The notes beneath the pieces are model-generated. The model made no database searches and was not told the origin of the DNA. It saw nothing but the letters and a program-made list of their open reading frames with translations. 64,000 nt of DNA from positions 105,836 to 169,835 of the forward strand of contig CAZTGZ010000001.1 of assembly GCA_964613385.1 (NCBI GenBank), written 5' to 3'. Shown here in pieces: positions 57,556-64,000 of this stretch (position 1 is its first letter; every line of letters starts with the position of its first letter). The stretch is from an uncultured Chitinophagaceae bacterium. GTDB lineage: Bacteria; Bacteroidota; Bacteroidia; NS11-12g; UBA9320. The position numbers and the translations under genes are program-made.

Positions 57556-58155
57556 ATGCCGAGAATATTATTGTTGCTTCTGATACCTTTCCTTTATTGC
57601 CCGGTGAAGGGCCAGAATGCACCTGAATTATCAGATTATACCGCTACTTTTACGCATGGCAATGTACTGGTAAACTGGACCATTAAATCCGGTAACACAT
57701 GCAATGGAGCCAGGTTGTTTCACAGTTCGGATAGTGTTCATTATCAATTGATTCATGAGGTGTTCGGCGTTTGTGGAAACATAACGGAAGAAGAGCATTA
57801 TTTCTTTTTGCATACCCAACCCGGGCTCAATCAAAGTAACTACTACCGGTTGGAACTGGGCACAGATCAAAATTTCTGGATCACACGGCTTTTTGTCCCT
57901 TTGGAAGCACAAAATGCACTGAATATCTGGCCTTCGCCTGCCCGGGAAACTGTTTTTGCCGGCTGGGAGAATCCAACGTATGAAATGCATCTGCTGCGAC
58001 TCATGGATGCGCAAGGCCGGATATTATATGAATCATCTACCAGAGAATCGTTTTTTAGTACGGCATTAAACGGATATCCTTCCGGTATTTATTATATGAC
58101 TCTTCAGAAAGAAGGCGAACGGAAAATACATTTTCAGAAATTCGCCGTGTATTAA
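57556..58155 (+). CDS. small secreted protein with T9SS C-terminal sorting domain
   Basis: Signal peptide (LLLLIPFLYCPVKGQ). The C-terminal ~80 aa (LNIWPSPARETVFAGWE...LLRLMDAQGRILYE...GIYYMTLQKEGERKIHFQKFAVY) resemble the T9SS type-A CTD. Confidence 0.55.
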   Translation: MPRILLLLLIPFLYCPVKGQNAPELSDYTATFTHGNVLVNWTIKSGNTCNGARLFHSSDSVHYQLIHEVFGVCGNITEEEHYFFLHTQPGLNQSNYYRLELGTDQNFWITRLFVPLEAQNALNIWPSPARETVFAGWENPTYEMHLLRLMDAQGRILYESSTRESFFSTALNGYPSGIYYMTLQKEGERKIHFQKFAVY

Positions 58156-58739
58156 TGCGAAAATGGCTCTCCCTTCTGATTGTTTCGCTGTGTCTGAGCG
58201 CATGTAATCAACCGAATACGCGTTATCGCCATATTGTCTTGCAGCCTTTGGGGAAATTTAGTGTTACCGAGGCCGCGCATTTTCAAAAATGGTTGCCGGG
58301 GAGTGCAGTTGCACAGCCCATTGCCATTCCGAACCATTGTCTAAATGAAAAGAAATACCGCTATCGGGCAGATAAATTACTGGATTTCCTTTCTGGCATA
58401 TATGGAAAGGATACGCTGGTGGTTGGGCTCACACATTCGGATATCAGCGTTACCAAAGGTAAACATGCAGACTGGGGCATCATGGGATTGGCCCGAAAAC
58501 CGGGTAGCGTTTGCGTTATTTCCTCATTCCGACCCAAAAGAAACGGTCTCGGAAACCAGTTGCACAAAGTAGTTCTGCATGAAATCGGACATACCACCGG
58601 ATTGCCGCATTGCCCGGTGAAGAGTTGTCTGATGCGCGATGCGGAAGGAGGTATACCGCTCCCGGAAGAAAAGGAATTTTGTACCAAATGCGCGCAACAA
58701 ATCCGCAAAAGTGGTTGGAAGTATTCACCGTCTCTCTGA
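58155..58739 (+). CDS. archaemetzincin-like zinc metalloprotease (M54-like) lipoprotein
   Basis: Lipobox LSACNQ. HEIGHTTGLPHC followed by CLM and FCTKCAQQ gives the HExxHxxGxxHC ... CxxC archaemetzincin signature. The start overlaps the upstream stop. Confidence 0.7.
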   Translation: MRKWLSLLIVSLCLSACNQPNTRYRHIVLQPLGKFSVTEAAHFQKWLPGSAVAQPIAIPNHCLNEKKYRYRADKLLDFLSGIYGKDTLVVGLTHSDISVTKGKHADWGIMGLARKPGSVCVISSFRPKRNGLGNQLHKVVLHEIGHTTGLPHCPVKSCLMRDAEGGIPLPEEKEFCTKCAQQIRKSGWKYSPSL

Positions 58740-58831
58740 GGGCGTTCACCTATTTTTTTCAGGGCATTCACCTACTTTTGAAAACCTCTATGATTTAGTC
58801 GGCTCAACTTTGCTGTATAAATCAATAGAAA

Positions 58832-59575
58832 ATGAAACCACAACACAAATTTAATTATTGCATGAATCCACAATTTGAAAAACAACGGAGAAATGGCCGC
58901 ATTTGGGGCGGAATCCTGGTATTGGCTGTGGGTGTAACCTTATTGGTGAAAGCCATGGGCTACTATATGCCTGCCTGGTTATTTACCTGGCCTATGTTGC
59001 TCGTTTTGCTCGGAATCTATACCCTCGGCAAACATGGATTTACCAGATTAACCGGATTGCTACCGCTAACAGTAGGAAGCATCTTTCTACTCGAAAAAAT
59101 AGACCCGGGTTTGCACATTGGACAAATGGCCTGGCCTATTGTAATTATTGCAATTGGACTCGCCATACTATTTAAACCCAGAAAAAAATGGAGTCACGAT
59201 TGGAAAAACGTCAATATGGGCTCTGATATCAGCGGAGAGGATTTTTTACAAATCGAGAGCATATTTGGCGGGGTAGAGAAGAACATCCTGAGCAAAAATT
59301 TTAAAGGGGGGAATATCAATGTAGTGTTTGGAGGTGTGGAGTTAAATCTGATGCAGAGTGATATTCAGGGTACAGTTATAGTTGATATTCAGGCGGCCTT
59401 TGGTGGGGTTGAGATTACGGTACCTGCCAATTGGAAAGTCCAAAACGAAATTACAGCTGTTTTAGGAGGAATTGAGGATAAGCGCCCATTTTCAGATGAA
59501 GCGATGAACGGTGACAAAACCCTCATGCTCAAAGGCTCAGTTGTTTTTGGAGGGGTCTCAGTTAAGTCGTATTGA
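58832..59575 (+). CDS. LiaF-like membrane protein with C-terminal DUF2154-type beta repeats
   Basis: Four TM helices, then a repeated VVFGGVELNL / AAFGGVEITV / VVFGGVSVK beta-strand motif characteristic of the LiaF/YvqF C-terminal domain. Confidence 0.6.
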   Translation: MKPQHKFNYCMNPQFEKQRRNGRIWGGILVLAVGVTLLVKAMGYYMPAWLFTWPMLLVLLGIYTLGKHGFTRLTGLLPLTVGSIFLLEKIDPGLHIGQMAWPIVIIAIGLAILFKPRKKWSHDWKNVNMGSDISGEDFLQIESIFGGVEKNILSKNFKGGNINVVFGGVELNLMQSDIQGTVIVDIQAAFGGVEITVPANWKVQNEITAVLGGIEDKRPFSDEAMNGDKTLMLKGSVVFGGVSVKSY

Positions 59576-59579
59576 TGAC

Positions 59580-60590
59580 ATGAAATTTTCAGGAAGCTCA
59601 TTTGTGTTGCTACCGGTTATGGCTGCTATGATATTGTTCTGGCCGGGATTATACATAGTTACACAAATGAACTTTCCATTTCAAACCTTGATCGATGCAT
59701 TTTCCGGTGCATTTTACATGGCATTATTCAGTCTGGTTTTACATCATATTCTGAAGCGCTACCGACCAGCAACCCCAACTCTGATACTTTGGGCGGCCAT
59801 TTTATGTGTCATTTGGCTGCCATTGTCAGTTATTACAACCCGGGCTATAGTGGATGAAAGTTACGCGTACATCACAGCTTGGGAAACCTGGCCTTTGAGA
59901 TACGGATTGGCTGTTTTATTCACTGGCAGTTCGGCCCTGATTTCAGGCGTGTATAACGAACAGCGGCATTTGGCCAAAAGTTCCGAAAGAATCGGTGAAT
60001 TGTCTCATTTAGCCAAAGACGCAGAGCTGCACTCTTTAAGGCAACAGATGCAACCCCATTTTTTGTTCAATAGTCTCAACAGCATACATGCATTAACGGC
60101 CATAGACCCTCAGAAGGCATCAGAAATGGTATTGGTTTTAAGCGATTATCTGCGGGGAACCCTGGGCAAAGAGCATCGGCATATGCACAGCGTTGCGGAT
60201 GAAATAGAGAGCAGCCGATTATACCTGGAAATCGAAAAGGTCAGATTTGGCGACCGTTTGCAGGTGGCTTGGGAGCAGGAAGGCGATTTGAGTACCATGA
60301 AAGTTCCTTCGTTAATATTACAACCACTGGTAGAAAATGCGGTGAAACATGGATTGCGGCAGGTTCAGGGGGATGTTTGTGTTCAAATCAGCGTCCGGGT
60401 GAATCCGGCATCCGTCTGGTTTTGTGTTGCGAATCCGTATAGCAATGAGGTGGTTCAAAGTCCGAAAGGAGGTTTCGGACTGAAGGCCCTGAAGCGCAGA
60501 TTGTATTTGTTGTACGGGAGGGATGATTTGCTGAATATCAATACGAACAAGGAGAAATTTACCGTAGAAATGCTCATACCATCATCATGA
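59580..60590 (+). CDS. LytS/YehU-type sensor histidine kinase
   Basis: 5-6 TM N-terminus; the His_kinase (HisKA_3-like) H-box LRQQMQPHFLFNSLNSIHAL; HATPase_c (ILQPLVENAVKHG...GGFGLKAL). Start chosen at MKFSGSS, just after the upstream stop. Confidence 0.8.
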   Translation: MKFSGSSFVLLPVMAAMILFWPGLYIVTQMNFPFQTLIDAFSGAFYMALFSLVLHHILKRYRPATPTLILWAAILCVIWLPLSVITTRAIVDESYAYITAWETWPLRYGLAVLFTGSSALISGVYNEQRHLAKSSERIGELSHLAKDAELHSLRQQMQPHFLFNSLNSIHALTAIDPQKASEMVLVLSDYLRGTLGKEHRHMHSVADEIESSRLYLEIEKVRFGDRLQVAWEQEGDLSTMKVPSLILQPLVENAVKHGLRQVQGDVCVQISVRVNPASVWFCVANPYSNEVVQSPKGGFGLKALKRRLYLLYGRDDLLNINTNKEKFTVEMLIPSS

Positions 60591-61309
60591 AAGCACTGAT
60601 TGTTGACGATGAACCGCTGGCACGTCAGCATTTGGAAATGTGTCTGAAAAAAATTTCGGGGATGGAAGTGGTGGGCACGGCCGGAGATGGATTTGAGGCC
60701 CTCCAGCTGATGAAGGAAATACATCCCGATATCATCTTTCTCGACATCCAAATGCCGCGTATCAATGGCTTTGAGGTGTTGGAATTGCTGGAAGAGAAAC
60801 CGGCCATCGTATTTATCACCGCTTTTGACAGCTATGCCATCCGCGCTTTTGAAATGAATGCGGTGGATTATTTGTTGAAGCCATTTTCACAATCGAGATT
60901 GGAACAAGCCATACAAAAAGCTCAACAGCAGGTTTCATTGTCATCAGGGAATTGGATGAACCGGGAAAAAACACCCGAAGAACAGGGCAGGATTGTATTG
61001 AGGCATCAGGGAGATATCCGAATGATTCCGGTTCATCAGATATATTATGTTGAAGCCTATGATGATTTTGTGAAGATACATACGGAGAAGGAGACCTTTG
61101 TGAAAAAGCAAACCCTCAGTTATTACGAAACGAATTTGTCGACCGCCGGTTTTGTGCGTTGCCATCGCAGCTATTTGGTAAACACCCAATGCATTACAGC
61201 CATACACCACGTAAAGGGTGAAATCTGGGAAATCCGCTTAAAGAATGGTTATCATATACAGGCCAGCAAGCAGGGTTATGGAAGGTTAAGGGAGGGGATG
61301 GGATTTTAG
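60587..61309 (+). CDS. LytTR-family response regulator
   Basis: Receiver domain (MKALIVDDEPLARQHLE...DIIFLDIQMP) plus C-terminal LytTR DNA-binding domain (IPVHQIYYVEAYDDFVKIHT...). 4-nt overlap with the kinase gene. Confidence 0.85.
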   Translation: MKALIVDDEPLARQHLEMCLKKISGMEVVGTAGDGFEALQLMKEIHPDIIFLDIQMPRINGFEVLELLEEKPAIVFITAFDSYAIRAFEMNAVDYLLKPFSQSRLEQAIQKAQQQVSLSSGNWMNREKTPEEQGRIVLRHQGDIRMIPVHQIYYVEAYDDFVKIHTEKETFVKKQTLSYYETNLSTAGFVRCHRSYLVNTQCITAIHHVKGEIWEIRLKNGYHIQASKQGYGRLREGMGF

Positions 61310-61567
61310 GAAAAATAGATCTGGTGGAGAACTCAATGGAGATTTTACTTTTTATGGGGAAAAGCAAGTTAGAAATTAGTTGAAGCTGTTATCCATACCC
61401 TGGTAAGACGCGCTTATCAATAAGATGGACTAAGATCAATAGGGTAGAGTAGCCATGTTATAAGAATGTATCAGAGTCCCTTTCAAGTGACTCCAATAGA
61501 GAGAACGCCGTCATTTGTCATGGTGAGCTTTGTTTGGTTAAGCGTGTTACATAACGGTTTAGGGCTA

Positions 61568-61676
61568 CCCGAAGGGCGGGACTTTTACCACTCCCTTTAG
61601 CGATCTGGATGATTTGAAAAACTGATGTTTGAATAACATCAAAACTGCCTTTGAAACAGAAATCCCGCCTTTTGGG
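61568..61676 (+). other. candidate structured RNA element: a 14-bp long-range helix (CCCGAAGGGCGGGAC / GAAATCCCGCCTTTTGGG) enclosing a 7-bp hairpin
   Basis: Seen directly. Arm 61568-61582 pairs with arm 61659-61676, including two G·U pairs that are possible only in the plus-strand transcript. An internal hairpin TGATGTT-tgaat-AACATCA lies at about 61622-61640. The element sits in a 433-nt ORF-free gap. Confidence 0.35.
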
Positions 61677-61742
61677 TAGGTGCTTCCTGTAGCCGGGCTA
61701 TTATAATATTAGTAGGGTGATGGGTTCTATTAATTTGCATTG

Positions 61743-62783
61743 TTATTTTATCGTGTAGCTCACATTGCGTCCACTTCCTTGTTTTTCAATGAGTCCTTTG
61801 TGGAGCAACCCTGACAAAATGCGTTTTACGGTTGGTGCGGGTATCGCCAACTTTACGGCAATTTCTCCCGACTGGATGTTCGGACGGTATTGAATAATAG
61901 AATAAATTGATTTTTCTTTGACCGAAAGCTGTGTTTCCATTCCACTTTTTTGCAGTTTCGTCAGCAGTTGCGATTGGATATTTGACAAGCAATTCAAAAA
62001 GAACATTATCCAAACGGTTACATCTTCATTAGGGCGTTGTGCATGACAACTTCTAAGCACTTGATAATATTCGTTTTTTCGGTTTTCTACTTCGTGTTCA
62101 AAACTCACGTATTCTATCCATTTATATCCGTTTTTGAGCAGCAAAAGCGTTGAAATCAAACGGCTTAGCCTGCCGTTTCCGTCTTGAAATGGGTGAACGC
62201 TCAAAAAATCATAGACAAAAGACGCTACTTTGATTAACGTATGCACTTCCGTTTCGGAATTATACCAATTGAGCAAAGCCCTCATGGCCTCTTCGGTGGC
62301 AAATCCTGCTTCGGTAGTTTGAAAAATGATTTGTCTTGTGCCGTCAGGAAGTGAGGCTTCAACCGCATTGTTATGCAGCTTATAATTGCCTTTATGCCAT
62401 TTGTCTTTGGCACTATATTTCAACAAACAATTATGTAAATTTTTGATTTGGCTTTCGGTAATGCTGATGTTTTCATAAGATCCCGAAATCAAGTCCAGTA
62501 CTTCAAAATAACCGACTACTTCCTGCGAATCTCTGTCGGTAAGCTTAGTATTATCAATTTTTTGAAGTAATACATCAACTTCTTCATCGCTCATTCTGTT
62601 TCCTTCAATACGGTTTGAAGCCCCTACGCTTCTCACTGTAGCAATGCTTTTCAACTCTTTGAGGCTTTGTCCTTCTCTGCGTTCAATAGCTGTCCAATGG
62701 GCATCAAAACGGTCTAGTTCACTGATTAAGTTAATCAGCTTCCAATTAATTTTTACTTTTAAATTGTATACTTGGTTGTCCAT
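61743..62783 (-). CDS. Fic family protein (class II, N-terminal inhibitory helix) with C-terminal winged-helix domain
   Basis: Fic active-site motif HPFQDGNGRLSRL; inhibitory (S/T)xxxE(G/N) motif SNRIEGN in the N-terminal Fic_N region; C-terminal wHTH-like tail (IAVKLAIPAPTVKRILSGLLHKGLIEKQGSGRNVSYTIK). Confidence 0.85.
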   Translation of the reverse strand: MDNQVYNLKVKINWKLINLISELDRFDAHWTAIERREGQSLKELKSIATVRSVGASNRIEGNRMSDEEVDVLLQKIDNTKLTDRDSQEVVGYFEVLDLISGSYENISITESQIKNLHNCLLKYSAKDKWHKGNYKLHNNAVEASLPDGTRQIIFQTTEAGFATEEAMRALLNWYNSETEVHTLIKVASFVYDFLSVHPFQDGNGRLSRLISTLLLLKNGYKWIEYVSFEHEVENRKNEYYQVLRSCHAQRPNEDVTVWIMFFLNCLSNIQSQLLTKLQKSGMETQLSVKEKSIYSIIQYRPNIQSGEIAVKLAIPAPTVKRILSGLLHKGLIEKQGSGRNVSYTIK

Positions 62784-62785
62784 TT

Positions 62786-62857
62786 TGATACGATTTGATA
62801 CGCAAAGATACCGTTAAGATTTGAAACCGCATACAAAAAATGATACGATTTGATACG
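62786..62857. promoter_or_regulatory. two 17-bp direct repeats TGATACGATTTGATACG (62786-62802 and 62841-62857), each a tandem GATACG-ATTT-GATACG; putative operator/promoter of the Fic gene
   Basis: Seen directly. Copy 1 abuts the Fic start codon (complement of 62781-62783). On the minus strand a TATCTTTG (-7 TAnnTTTG-like) box lies between the two copies. Confidence 0.4.
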
Positions 62858-62967
62858 TTTAGATTTGATTATGAAACGAAAAATGTCATGGTTTTAGGTG
62901 GTGCGCTTGTCATGTTGTGGGTTTTCACACCTTGCGCTAGCGTGTTGAAGCTACCCGAAGGTGGCGT

Positions 62968-62983
62968 CCCGAAAGCTTTCGGG
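62968..62983. repeat. perfect 16-bp palindrome CCCGAAAGCTTTCGGG
   Basis: Seen directly. Self-complementary; 5' neighbour of the GCTACCCGAAGG motif shared with the 61564 region. Confidence 0.5.
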
Positions 62984-63039
62984 ATCGGAGCACAAATCTG
63001 TCTGCCAGCACAGAACTTGAATAGAACCACAAAGCTCCA

Positions 63040-63059
63040 ATCCCGATAGCTATCGGGAT
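63040..63059. repeat. perfect 20-bp palindrome ATCCCGATAGCTATCGGGAT
   Basis: Seen directly. A 19/20 near-copy, ATCCCCATAGCTATCGGGA, occurs at about 56894-56913 inside the membrane-protein CDS. Confidence 0.5.
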
Positions 63060-63117
63060 GCACGTCACCCCGCCTGAGGCAAAACCCGTGTTATAGCCAT
63101 TGGTTCTTGTCCTTTCG

Positions 63118-63981
63118 TTATTCAAATTCCACAGGTTCAAAAAATTGTCTGCCTAATGCATAAGATATCAATCCTTCATGCTGCAATCTTCCTATAATAA
63201 TAGCGGGATGGGTATTAAATTTTTCTGCAAATTCAATTACATCCTCTTCGGTAATTCTGAATCGTTGTAAAATTTCTTCTTGTTCTTCTTTTGAAAGTGT
63301 CCATTTAATGGCAAAGTTATCGGCTTCTTTTTCTTTCTGTTTGTCTTTCTCAGAATAGTCAATGTTCTCCAAGAAAATATCCTTTTTGCCATGTAGCAAA
63401 ATATGCCCTGCCTCATGAAAGAAAGTAAACCAAAAGCTGTCGATACGTTTGTAACGACCTGTTAATTGAATTAAAGGCGTATCGTTTATCCAACGGGTGC
63501 TACCATTGATTGGGGCTTTATTGATGCAAGGCGTATGTACCACTTTTACACCTGCTTCCAAACAAACTTGTTGCAATTGCTTGAAGAAATTATTAGGATG
63601 CTTTGCCATAATGCTTTTAATCTCGGGCAATGCTTCTTTAAAATCTTTTTCTTCATAGGGTTTGGTTGGCAATTCGGCTGCTTGCAGTTCGCCTTTACGC
63701 AACCATGCAGAAATGGCATAAGGTTCTTTGGTATGTGCCAACGAAATACGGAACGCTACTTTTAGTTGCTGCTTGAAATAGTAATCTTCCCAAGCGTAAT
63801 GATTACTGATACTGAAAAACGCCAACAGTTCTGATGTTTTTTCTTCGATAGTGGTTTTAGCCGGTAGCCAACCTTTTTTTACCATGTCAGGAATAGGGAA
63901 ATTTCTTGCCCAATCGGTTGATTCTGCCAACAGTTCCTGACGTTCTTCACGGGCAATATATTCATCATAGCTTCGCTGCAT
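63118..63981 (-). CDS. ImmA/IrrE family metallo-endopeptidase (DUF955); N-terminus may continue beyond the window edge
   Basis: HExxH in FTFFHEAGHILLHGKKDIF with the downstream acidic motif (EKEADNFAIKW) typical of ImmA/IrrE. The reading frame stays open from 63981 to the window end, so the true start (possibly an XRE-type HTH domain) may lie outside the window. Confidence 0.7.
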   Translation of the reverse strand: MQRSYDEYIAREERQELLAESTDWARNFPIPDMVKKGWLPAKTTIEEKTSELLAFFSISNHYAWEDYYFKQQLKVAFRISLAHTKEPYAISAWLRKGELQAAELPTKPYEEKDFKEALPEIKSIMAKHPNNFFKQLQQVCLEAGVKVVHTPCINKAPINGSTRWINDTPLIQLTGRYKRIDSFWFTFFHEAGHILLHGKKDIFLENIDYSEKDKQKEKEADNFAIKWTLSKEEQEEILQRFRITEEDVIEFAEKFNTHPAIIIGRLQHEGLISYALGRQFFEPVEFE

Positions 63982-64000
63982 ATTCAGCCAAAAGTGGGCA

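Follow-up and report, generated by a model that had tools for sequence, protein, structure and literature searches.

The window analysed here is a stretch of 64,000 nucleotides (nt) from the genome of an uncultured Chitinophagaceae bacterium (contig CAZTGZ010000001.1, positions 105,836 to 169,835), in which a gene for a Fic-domain protein is flanked by two diverged copies of a non-coding element, designated R1 and R2. Both copies are homologous members of one structured family with a covarying fold, and this family quite probably represents recombination sites that, much like the attC sites of integrons, mark the boundaries of mobile gene cassettes. Its members form arrays, closely related phages gain and lose whole cassettes at GTTA, and the Fic module has its border at G|TT. 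Fic and the neighbouring ImmA/IrrE-type gene are thereby marked as acquired cargo of cassettes, located where an array that extends past coordinate 64000 comes to its end. The element is apparently the cassette site of a large and undescribed system of Bacteroidota and their phages, resembling integrons and clusters of attC sites lacking integron-integrases (CALINs), and its identification accounts for the two odd non-coding stretches of the window.

A family of structured elements flanking the Fic gene

On the minus strand, the ImmA/IrrE-type gene is followed by a 334-nt gap, the Fic gene, a 433-nt gap and the end of a convergent operon encoding LiaF-like, histidine kinase and LytTR proteins. 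The preliminary description of this DNA, made from its letters alone, singled out these gaps as the two large stretches of the window free of open reading frames (ORFs), which is inexact as other sizeable gaps exist in it. Direct pairwise alignment of R1 and R2 was weak and unconvincing alone, and their homology was therefore settled through relatives. An nhmmer profile and a structure (covariance) model were built with 22 relatives as seeds and no window sequence. Searching the 64-kb window, nhmmer identified 61548-61685 (minus strand, E 4.2e-11) and 62934-63096 (minus strand, E 3.1e-7, profile positions 4-131), with the next-best match at E >3. The proposal that two diverged, identically oriented copies of one structured element flank Fic is thereby upheld, as the window-free profile finds just these two. 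The structure model scored R1 at 51.3 bits (E 1.4e-10) and R2 at 15.1 bits (E 0.1), the low score of the latter being due to its palindromic insertions. Fourteen sites could be aligned over their full length of 132-136 nt, with R2 shown to be a normal member carrying two symmetric palindromic insertions of 15-16 nt. R1 shares 74-76% identity with the element downstream of Fic in loci L031 and L036, while identity between copies is 50-70% for those of one genome and 20-69% for those within one locus. Comparison of within- and between-locus similarity gave only a weak difference (p=0.02) in respect of array-specific element types, and the idea of local homogenisation of elements within arrays was dropped as unproven.

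The family consists of imperfect palindromes of ~133 nt with terminal ...TAAC / GTTA... boxes, a 16-bp inner stem and a variable tip. Read along the minus strand of the window, the order of parts within a site is R'' box (ending in TAAC), spacer (5 nt), L'' arm (16 nt), variable tip, L' arm (16 nt), spacer (9 nt, consensus CTGCAAAAC) and R' box (GTTAG). RNAalifold analysis showed compensatory changes in ten of the twelve L-box pairs of the inner stem, and among 52 distinct copies double changes occur in 17/17 modelled pairs. Paired cells in these copies amount to 78.8%, compared with 60.6% in shuffles and 32-44% with slid partners, the alignment having been fitted to the model. The R box also covaries. 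At other Fic loci the hairpin arms are TTGGCAAAAAAGCGGG...CCGCTTCTATGCCAA, where the window has CTACCCAAAAGGCGGG...CCCGCCCTTCGGGTAG, with compensatory changes between them, and are then followed by ...AAACCGTTA. Within 195 distinct near-full-length copies, the terminal AAC is present in 188 and GTT in 169, with GCT taking the place of GTT in two. The features of the window, with their coordinates, are as follows.

61548-61692 (145 nt), minus strand: R1, attC-like site of the Fic cassette (88.8 bits with the first covariance model, 51.3 bits with the window-free model)
61549-61555, minus strand: R' box of R1, GTTATGT, its GTT intact, placed by alignment to the model; predicted crossover point and predicted end of the cassette array
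61565-61580, minus strand: L' arm of R1, CCCGCCCTTCGGGTAG, which holds the shared 12-mer and pairs with 61664-61679 (compensatory columns)
61664-61679, minus strand: L'' arm of R1, CTACCCAAAAGGCGGG, mispaired as A.C at two positions of this strand, where the plus strand has G.T pairs
61683-61692, minus strand: degenerate R'' box of R1, CTACAGGAAG where the family has CTACTAAC-AG, as judged against L024, L031 and L036; AAC is lost
61743-62783, minus strand: Fic-domain protein of 346 amino acids (aa) with a C-terminal winged helix (Pfam), cassette cargo
62784-62933, minus strand: 5' leader of the Fic cassette, kept in all Fic loci
62934-63097 (164 nt), minus strand: R2, attC-like site of the upstream ImmA cassette (62 bits with the first covariance model; also found by nhmmer)
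62935-62941, minus strand: mutated R' box of R2, GCTAGCG (family GTTAGTA), forming the 5' border of the Fic cassette
62968-62983, no strand: palindromic insertion in the 3' arm of R2, CCCGAAAGCTTTCGGG, an insert relative to the profile and the 14-site alignment
63043-63057, no strand: palindromic insertion in the 5' arm of R2, CCGATAGCTATCGGG, pairing with 62968-62983 in the predicted fold
63090-63097, minus strand: R'' box of R2, GCTATAAC, its AAC intact
63118-63981, minus strand: ImmA/IrrE-type (Peptidase_M78) gene, cargo of the neighbouring cassette (PF06114, 5.5e-11), with R2 directly after it
61310-61547 (238 nt), no strand: stretch without ORFs that lies past the last site and adjoins the convergent gene for the LytTR response regulator

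Both gaps fold as long hairpins (z-scores -2.3 to -3.8). Throughout the family it is the complement strand that tends to fold more stably (157 of the 195 copies), and for R1 the predicted fold is stronger on the plus strand than on the minus strand (-75.3 vs -56.6 kcal/mol) owing to G.U pairs. The use of G.U pairs on the plus strand, remarked upon previously, is explained by this, the plus strand of the window being the better-folding 'bottom' strand of R1.

The motifs by which the likeness of the gaps had been noticed fared variously. The exact 12-mer GCTACCCGAAGG is present at 61564-61575 and 62950-62961 on the plus strand as reported, and the window has no further copy of it when one mismatch is allowed. 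For AGCGTGTT the positions, 61541 and 62939, were correct, but not the reading of these occurrences as being in register: in R2 this motif is made up of the degenerate spacer and the R' box, while in R1 it lies almost wholly outside the element. TGTCATGG, placed earlier at 61508 and 62885, is really found at 61516 and 62884, and its in-register reading is likewise unsupported; in the flank of R2 it belongs to the 5' leader conserved across all Fic cassettes, and this 8-mer is probably common to both flanks by chance. Conservation of the motif pair AGCGTGTT..GCTACCCGAAGG elsewhere was not found, as a scan of 185,579 genomes, a collection that does not include the source genome, gave 20 matches in unrelated phyla, equal to the chance expectation. 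The long-range stem of R1 exists, although it consists of ~17 bp, CTACCCGAAGGGCGGGA / TCCCGCCTTTTGGGTAG, with two G.T pairs on the plus strand, instead of 14 bp. Similarly, the perfect palindromes of R2 (62968-62983 and 63040-63059) are present, but are in fact symmetric 15-16-nt inserts in both arms that pair with each other. By these paired insertions, one per arm, the hairpin is lengthened. CCUUCGGG had been taken for a C(UUCG)G tetraloop hairpin, whereas CTTCG has CAAAAG, on the other side of the element, as its pairing partner, and the surrounding positions covary.

Probable cassettes in chromosomes and phages

More than 100 homologues of the Fic protein with 85-92% identity were identified in unrelated contexts, and the DNA homology of the Fic locus to other loci extends from 61610/61689 to 62918/62934, stopping at the elements. 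These differing neighbourhoods, taken with DNA similarity that ends at the elements, show Fic to be a mobile module. It starts at G|TTAGTAGC (GTT-AGTAGCAAGG; G|TTAGTAGCAAGG) after unrelated DNA in 14 of 22 distinct upstream contexts, and in L024 the DNA preceding it is a housekeeping gene without an element. Its end is ...GCTACTAA|C, and TTAGTAGC at one end is complementary to GCTACTAA at the other, as would be expected of a cassette able to form a circle. One of the options previously offered for these flanks, a small mobile cassette that carries Fic and has att-like direct repeats at its ends, is essentially right in that Fic and its leader move as a unit between the end boxes. In the window itself, R2 has GCT for GTT and the AAC box of R1 has been lost, each an uncommon state among members of the family, and hence the Fic cassette is probably frozen in place, with both copies, to judge by these boxes, probably inactive.

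Arrays of at least three sites each were found in L021, L030, L055, L058 and L071. All 44 matches with E <0.01 in Fic loci are on the strand of Fic, and on chromosomal contigs the element is located just 3' of co-oriented genes (61 vs 3). In L021 the sites begin 7-51 nt past the ORF stop; R1 and R2 start 51 nt and 21 nt past the stop codons of Fic and ImmA, respectively, at a distance of 1.25 kb from each other, and no integrase is encoded in the 64 kb. Contigs L048 and L050, which are 98.5% identical, differ by block replacements that start and end within elements. Bacterial cassette cargo includes Fic, ImmA/IrrE and Mrr-type genes.

The family is also present in phages. When IMG/VR was scanned for the 3' motif, at least 120 loci were returned, in which the model then found at least 244 plus 119 copies in dense one-strand arrays. 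One of these loci, L115, has 15 sites in 9 kb, each straight after a small ORF, and is a real phage, carrying Sipho_Gp157, AAA_24 and DUF3127. The cultured Flavobacterium phage vB_FspS_hemulen6-1 possesses 14 copies across its leftward early region, the genes of which encode four DNA methyltransferases, a helix-turn-helix protein and small ORFs. These copies are not mentioned in the paper describing the phage, and no earlier description of such repeats in Flavobacterium phages was found in the literature searched. What distinguishes four near-identical Lillamyvirus genomes (hemulen, sniff, snork) is the presence or absence of complete [ORF + element] units. Phage sniff9-1 has 439 extra bases (gp014 and one element), inserted after ...TTTAACGTTAT and ending ...GCAAAGCGTTAT|GTAAAAG. 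All five junction pairs between the near-identical phages (one from sniff, four from hemulen/snork) fall within C-GTTA, a pattern characteristic of the exchange of cassettes at G|TT in integrons.

Counter-defence genes are encoded in array-bearing phage loci, namely Gad2, Tad6, a cREC_REC domain protein and many DNA methyltransferases (L240 6687-7298; L245 12794-13681; L249 14196-14870; L115 5860-6309). The Gad2 gene of L245 is not within the detected array but ~4 kb past the recombinase.

Several further features were observed around the Fic module and the chromosomal arrays. Pfam analysis of the Fic protein gave Fic at 1e-14 and weak matches to TrmB/MarR/HTH_24. The leader of its gene contains direct repeats of TGATACGATTTGATACG (62786-62826 and 62841-62881), which are putative operators alongside a putative promoter of the cassette's own, and besides these repeats (62784-62881) GTATCAAATCGTATCAAA adjoins the start codon. 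CGTATCA-type repeats are retained upstream of Fic homologues down to ~63% identity and are likely operators bound by the C-terminal winged helix of the Fic protein. The stretch at 61310-61547, for which none of the fetched loci had a homologue, might be what is left of a decayed cassette. A unit of ~115 nt without an ORF, with 18-bp inverted ends GTCAGGCTGTGAAAAAAC ... GTTTTTTCACAGCCTGAC, sits exactly between the final G of an element and the next GTTAG (L036 1437-1555; L030 5401 and 9753; upstream of Fic in L047, L073 and L077) and may represent either a cassette that is empty or a small mobile element in its own right. Interspersed in the same arrays are repeats of another family, unrelated to the first (...TTGTTTACATAACCAAAGTTTTGTAGTTTTGAGG...; L055 2905-3051, 5197-5404, 6188-6298 and 8451-8549; also L059 and L062). 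L109 (1732-4848) has four tandem genes for 249-aa proteins with a C-terminal sorting domain of the type IX secretion system (T9SS) upstream of an element-free copy of Fic. In L108 (8276-9846), a tRNA-Phe gene, a Bacteroidota-type integrase (Arm-DNA-bind_5) and the 3' half only of an element precede Fic. This conjugative-transposon-type integrase was rejected as the cassette enzyme, being an ordinary tRNA-Phe island integrase with only half an element beside it. The sole tRNA gene of the window is also a tRNA-Phe (21419-21492), and a tRNA- or tmRNA-derived att site was likewise rejected, that tRNA lying at 21419.

Candidate recombinase and competing explanations

Compact tyrosine recombinases of 264-294 aa (Phage_int_SAM_4 and Phage_integrase domains) were identified at the array edges in L184, L138 and L220. 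Their best NCBIfam matches are models for 'tyrosine recombinase/integron integrase', all below cutoff, and they are without the IntI-specific segment. When a 277-aa protein with the SAM_4 and Phage_integrase domains was used as the sole query, arrays were located right beside it in 3/3 long phage loci. In the element's own direction the arrays point away from the recombinase gene, as they do in integrons, while the cassette ORFs are reversed. This compact Xer-like recombinase, absent from the window, is the candidate enzyme of the system on the strength of its position beside phage arrays.

In the proposed mechanism, the arms of the site would pair in single-stranded DNA, so that R'' meets R' as a short duplex, and a tyrosine recombinase would cut at G|TT, the chemistry of this cleavage being presumed. 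Exchange between two such sites would excise or insert a unit of one gene and one site. The window would then hold the distal end of a minus-strand array: the ImmA/IrrE gene, R2, Fic together with a promoter and operators of its own, R1, and thereafter ordinary chromosome beginning with the LytTR two-component operon.

A number of observations weigh against the interpretation as cassette recombination sites. No integron integrase was found by tblastn with IntI1 in the window or in ~230 loci, and the array-edge recombinases reach only 133-168 bits with TIGR02249 against a cutoff of 265, the match being split in two. The L box of this family is symmetric (16/16 nt), without the extrahelical bases of attC sites and with two A.C / G.T positions, and the longer spacer is on the R' side (9 nt vs 5 nt on the R'' side). 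ORFs of phage arrays are antisense to the R''-to-R' direction of the site (201 vs 17). At least 14 unrelated element bodies follow one Fic module, after CTACTAA|C (loci L021-L098), which suggests exchange at R'' besides R', or gene conversion among elements. The break points distinguishing L048 and L050 are also found after L' and at R'', and together with the varied bodies these indicate that exchange also takes place away from G|TT. Among the chromosomal 'cassettes' are some (L030) that consist of T9SS genes of large size and ordinary appearance. R' matches the R'' of the next cassette in 2.93 positions and its own in 2.80, a difference that is not significant (n=15). Finally, the GTTA at the phage junctions is part of the most conserved 8-mer of the family, and microhomology-driven recombination there is a possible alternative.

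The main rival to cassette recombination sites is an intergenic repeat of the promoter-early stem-loop (PeSL), repetitive extragenic palindromic (REP) or enterobacterial repetitive intergenic consensus (ERIC) type, that is, a transcribed stem-loop acting as terminator or mRNA stabiliser after each gene and shuffled by homologous or relaxed recombination, or by microhomology, with no dedicated enzyme. The L048/L050 break points at R'', after L' and at R' would suit such a repeat, as would the swapped element bodies downstream of Fic, the fact that the better-folding strand is the mRNA strand in phages, and the hemulen-type phages, which have arrays and no recombinase yet encode a recombination protein; precedent exists in the PeSL cassettes of T4-type phages (PMC2839356). 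It is nonetheless judged unlikely. The 5/5 junctions of near-identical phages lie in one 5-nt window despite longer similar stretches in the flanking copies, AAC and GTT are near-invariant at the extreme ends while the R box covaries, and the tyrosine recombinase is associated with arrays in 3/3 cases. Furthermore, orientation with respect to the genes flips between phages and chromosomes, whereas the arrays stay strictly unidirectional, and there is no terminator-like T tract after R1 or R2. A sigma-70 promoter and terminator scan of both elements, sigma-70 being ill-suited to Bacteroidota, gave no terminator-like site and no clear promoter.

The preliminary description also considered a small or cis-regulatory RNA, with R1 and R2 controlling Fic from a 5' leader or 3' untranslated region. 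Stable predicted folds, covarying pairs and the G.U-assisted fold of the plus strand of R1 are what such an RNA would display. However, the Rfam search of 61310-63117 gave no match even at E <=10, with that of 58000-64000 at the same threshold returning only noise matches outside the region. The element is found after hundreds of unrelated genes, without any tie to Fic, which itself occurs without an element in L109-L114. The conserved Fic leader and its operators lie outside the element, and the strand of the element relative to transcription is opposite in phages and chromosomes, which argues against a primary role as a transcript. An RNA is accordingly very unlikely. That separate promoter/operator region also speaks against the suggestion of a duplicated regulatory region. 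A miniature inverted-repeat transposable element (MITE), which had been offered as a variant of the cassette option, would have landed close to Fic twice by coincidence. The size of ~133 nt, the terminal inverted repeats TAAC/GTTA and the many copies are all in keeping with it. Yet target-site duplications and presence or absence of the element alone were not seen, the unit gained or lost being gene plus element; the copies are strongly diverged, and all copies of an array have a single orientation. This makes a MITE the least credible of these explanations, with hardly any probability left to it.

Relation to integrons and other cassette systems

Beyond the reading of R1 and R2 as cassette recombination sites, a wider proposal can be made tentatively: the family could belong to a very abundant, unrecognised system resembling integrons that is carried by Bacteroidota and by their phages, virulent phages among them. 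Its sites would elude standard attC detection, it would use the 277-aa Xer-like phage recombinase, or an enzyme of the host, in place of IntI, its phage genes would be reversed, and its cargo would serve counter-defence in phages (DNA methyltransferases, Gad2, Tad6) and defence or toxicity in bacteria (Fic, ImmA, Mrr). If this is true, phages and hosts share one cassette pool by way of the same sites, and the Fic cassette of the window is a decayed chromosomal outpost. It has been held that integrons are almost absent from Bacteroidota (PMC9024848) and that CALINs are rare in phages, with 17 in 10,705 genomes (PMC9892861). More than 360 model matches in at least 120 IMG/VR loci, and 14 sites in a cultured Flavobacterium phage, raise the prospect that cassette-based exchange far exceeds what attC models trained on Proteobacteria suggest. 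Such a system could help to explain the turnover of phage hyperplastic regions and the movement of defence and counter-defence genes between phages and hosts. It is open to experiment, since a specific candidate for the enzyme can be named and both host and phage are in culture (Flavobacterium sp. LMO6/LMO9 and their Lillamyvirus phages).

The closest described sites are those of Polaribacter phage P12002L, one of the 17 phages with CALINs, which has two methyltransferase cassettes (PMC9892861). The IntegronFinder/HattCI screen of 10,705 phage genomes in which it was identified did not list the Lillamyvirus arrays (PMC9892861). The match of the family model at L239 30004-30060 corresponds to the published P12002L_attC1; attC2 of this phage was recombined by IntI1 at G|TT, while attC1 was unverified in that assay (PMC9892861). 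Like the phage arrays described here, these sites belong to a phage of Flavobacteriia and accompany DNA-methyltransferase cassettes on the strand opposite the site, and attC1 shares the geometry of the family (R''-5 nt-L''...L'-8 nt-R'). They differ in being short (~55-70 nt) and in that only two were reported; the ~133-nt class and dense arrays are not described there.

PeSL cassettes of T4-type phages are similar in that repeated intergenic stem-loop motifs surround small accessory ORFs in hyperplastic regions (PMC2839356), with modular gain, loss and replacement of genes between close relatives. PeSLs, however, are promoter and terminator motifs thought to work by homologous recombination, whereas the present family has AAC/GTT ends, phage junctions confined to GTTA, an associated tyrosine recombinase and members in bacterial chromosomes as well.

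The Vibrio cholerae repeats (VCR) provide another parallel, being a repeat family of uniform length (here 132-136 nt) that separates mostly small ORFs in long arrays. VCRs are roughly 120-130 nt in length. Their arrays adjoin IntIA and attI, and the VCR copies of one array are far more alike than the elements studied here (50-70%).

With integrons in general the resemblance extends to site, array and cargo. The element is an imperfect palindrome with conserved ...AAC / GTT... end boxes, a covarying L stem and a variable tip, as is an attC site, and one strand folds better than the other. A site follows each gene, arrays are unidirectional, units of gene plus site are gained and lost with G|TT junctions, and the 5' end of a cassette is complementary to its own R''. 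The cargo is rich in toxin and defence genes (Fic, ImmA, Mrr) or phage counter-defence genes (DNA methyltransferases, Gad2, Tad6), as in integron cassettes. The full attC consensus RYYYAAC/GTTRRRY is matched only loosely, the typical boxes of this family being CTACTAAC and GTTAGTA. Integrons differ in possessing IntI, where here a Xer-like recombinase (264-294 aa, below family cutoffs) takes its place if one is seen at all, and in lacking the reversed ORFs of the phage arrays and the apparent swapping of element bodies at R'' too. The two sites of the window, 1.25 kb apart and without an integrase nearby, would fit the definition of a CALIN. While two features of membership, IntI and the canonical geometry of unpaired bases, are wanting, the element works like an attC site.

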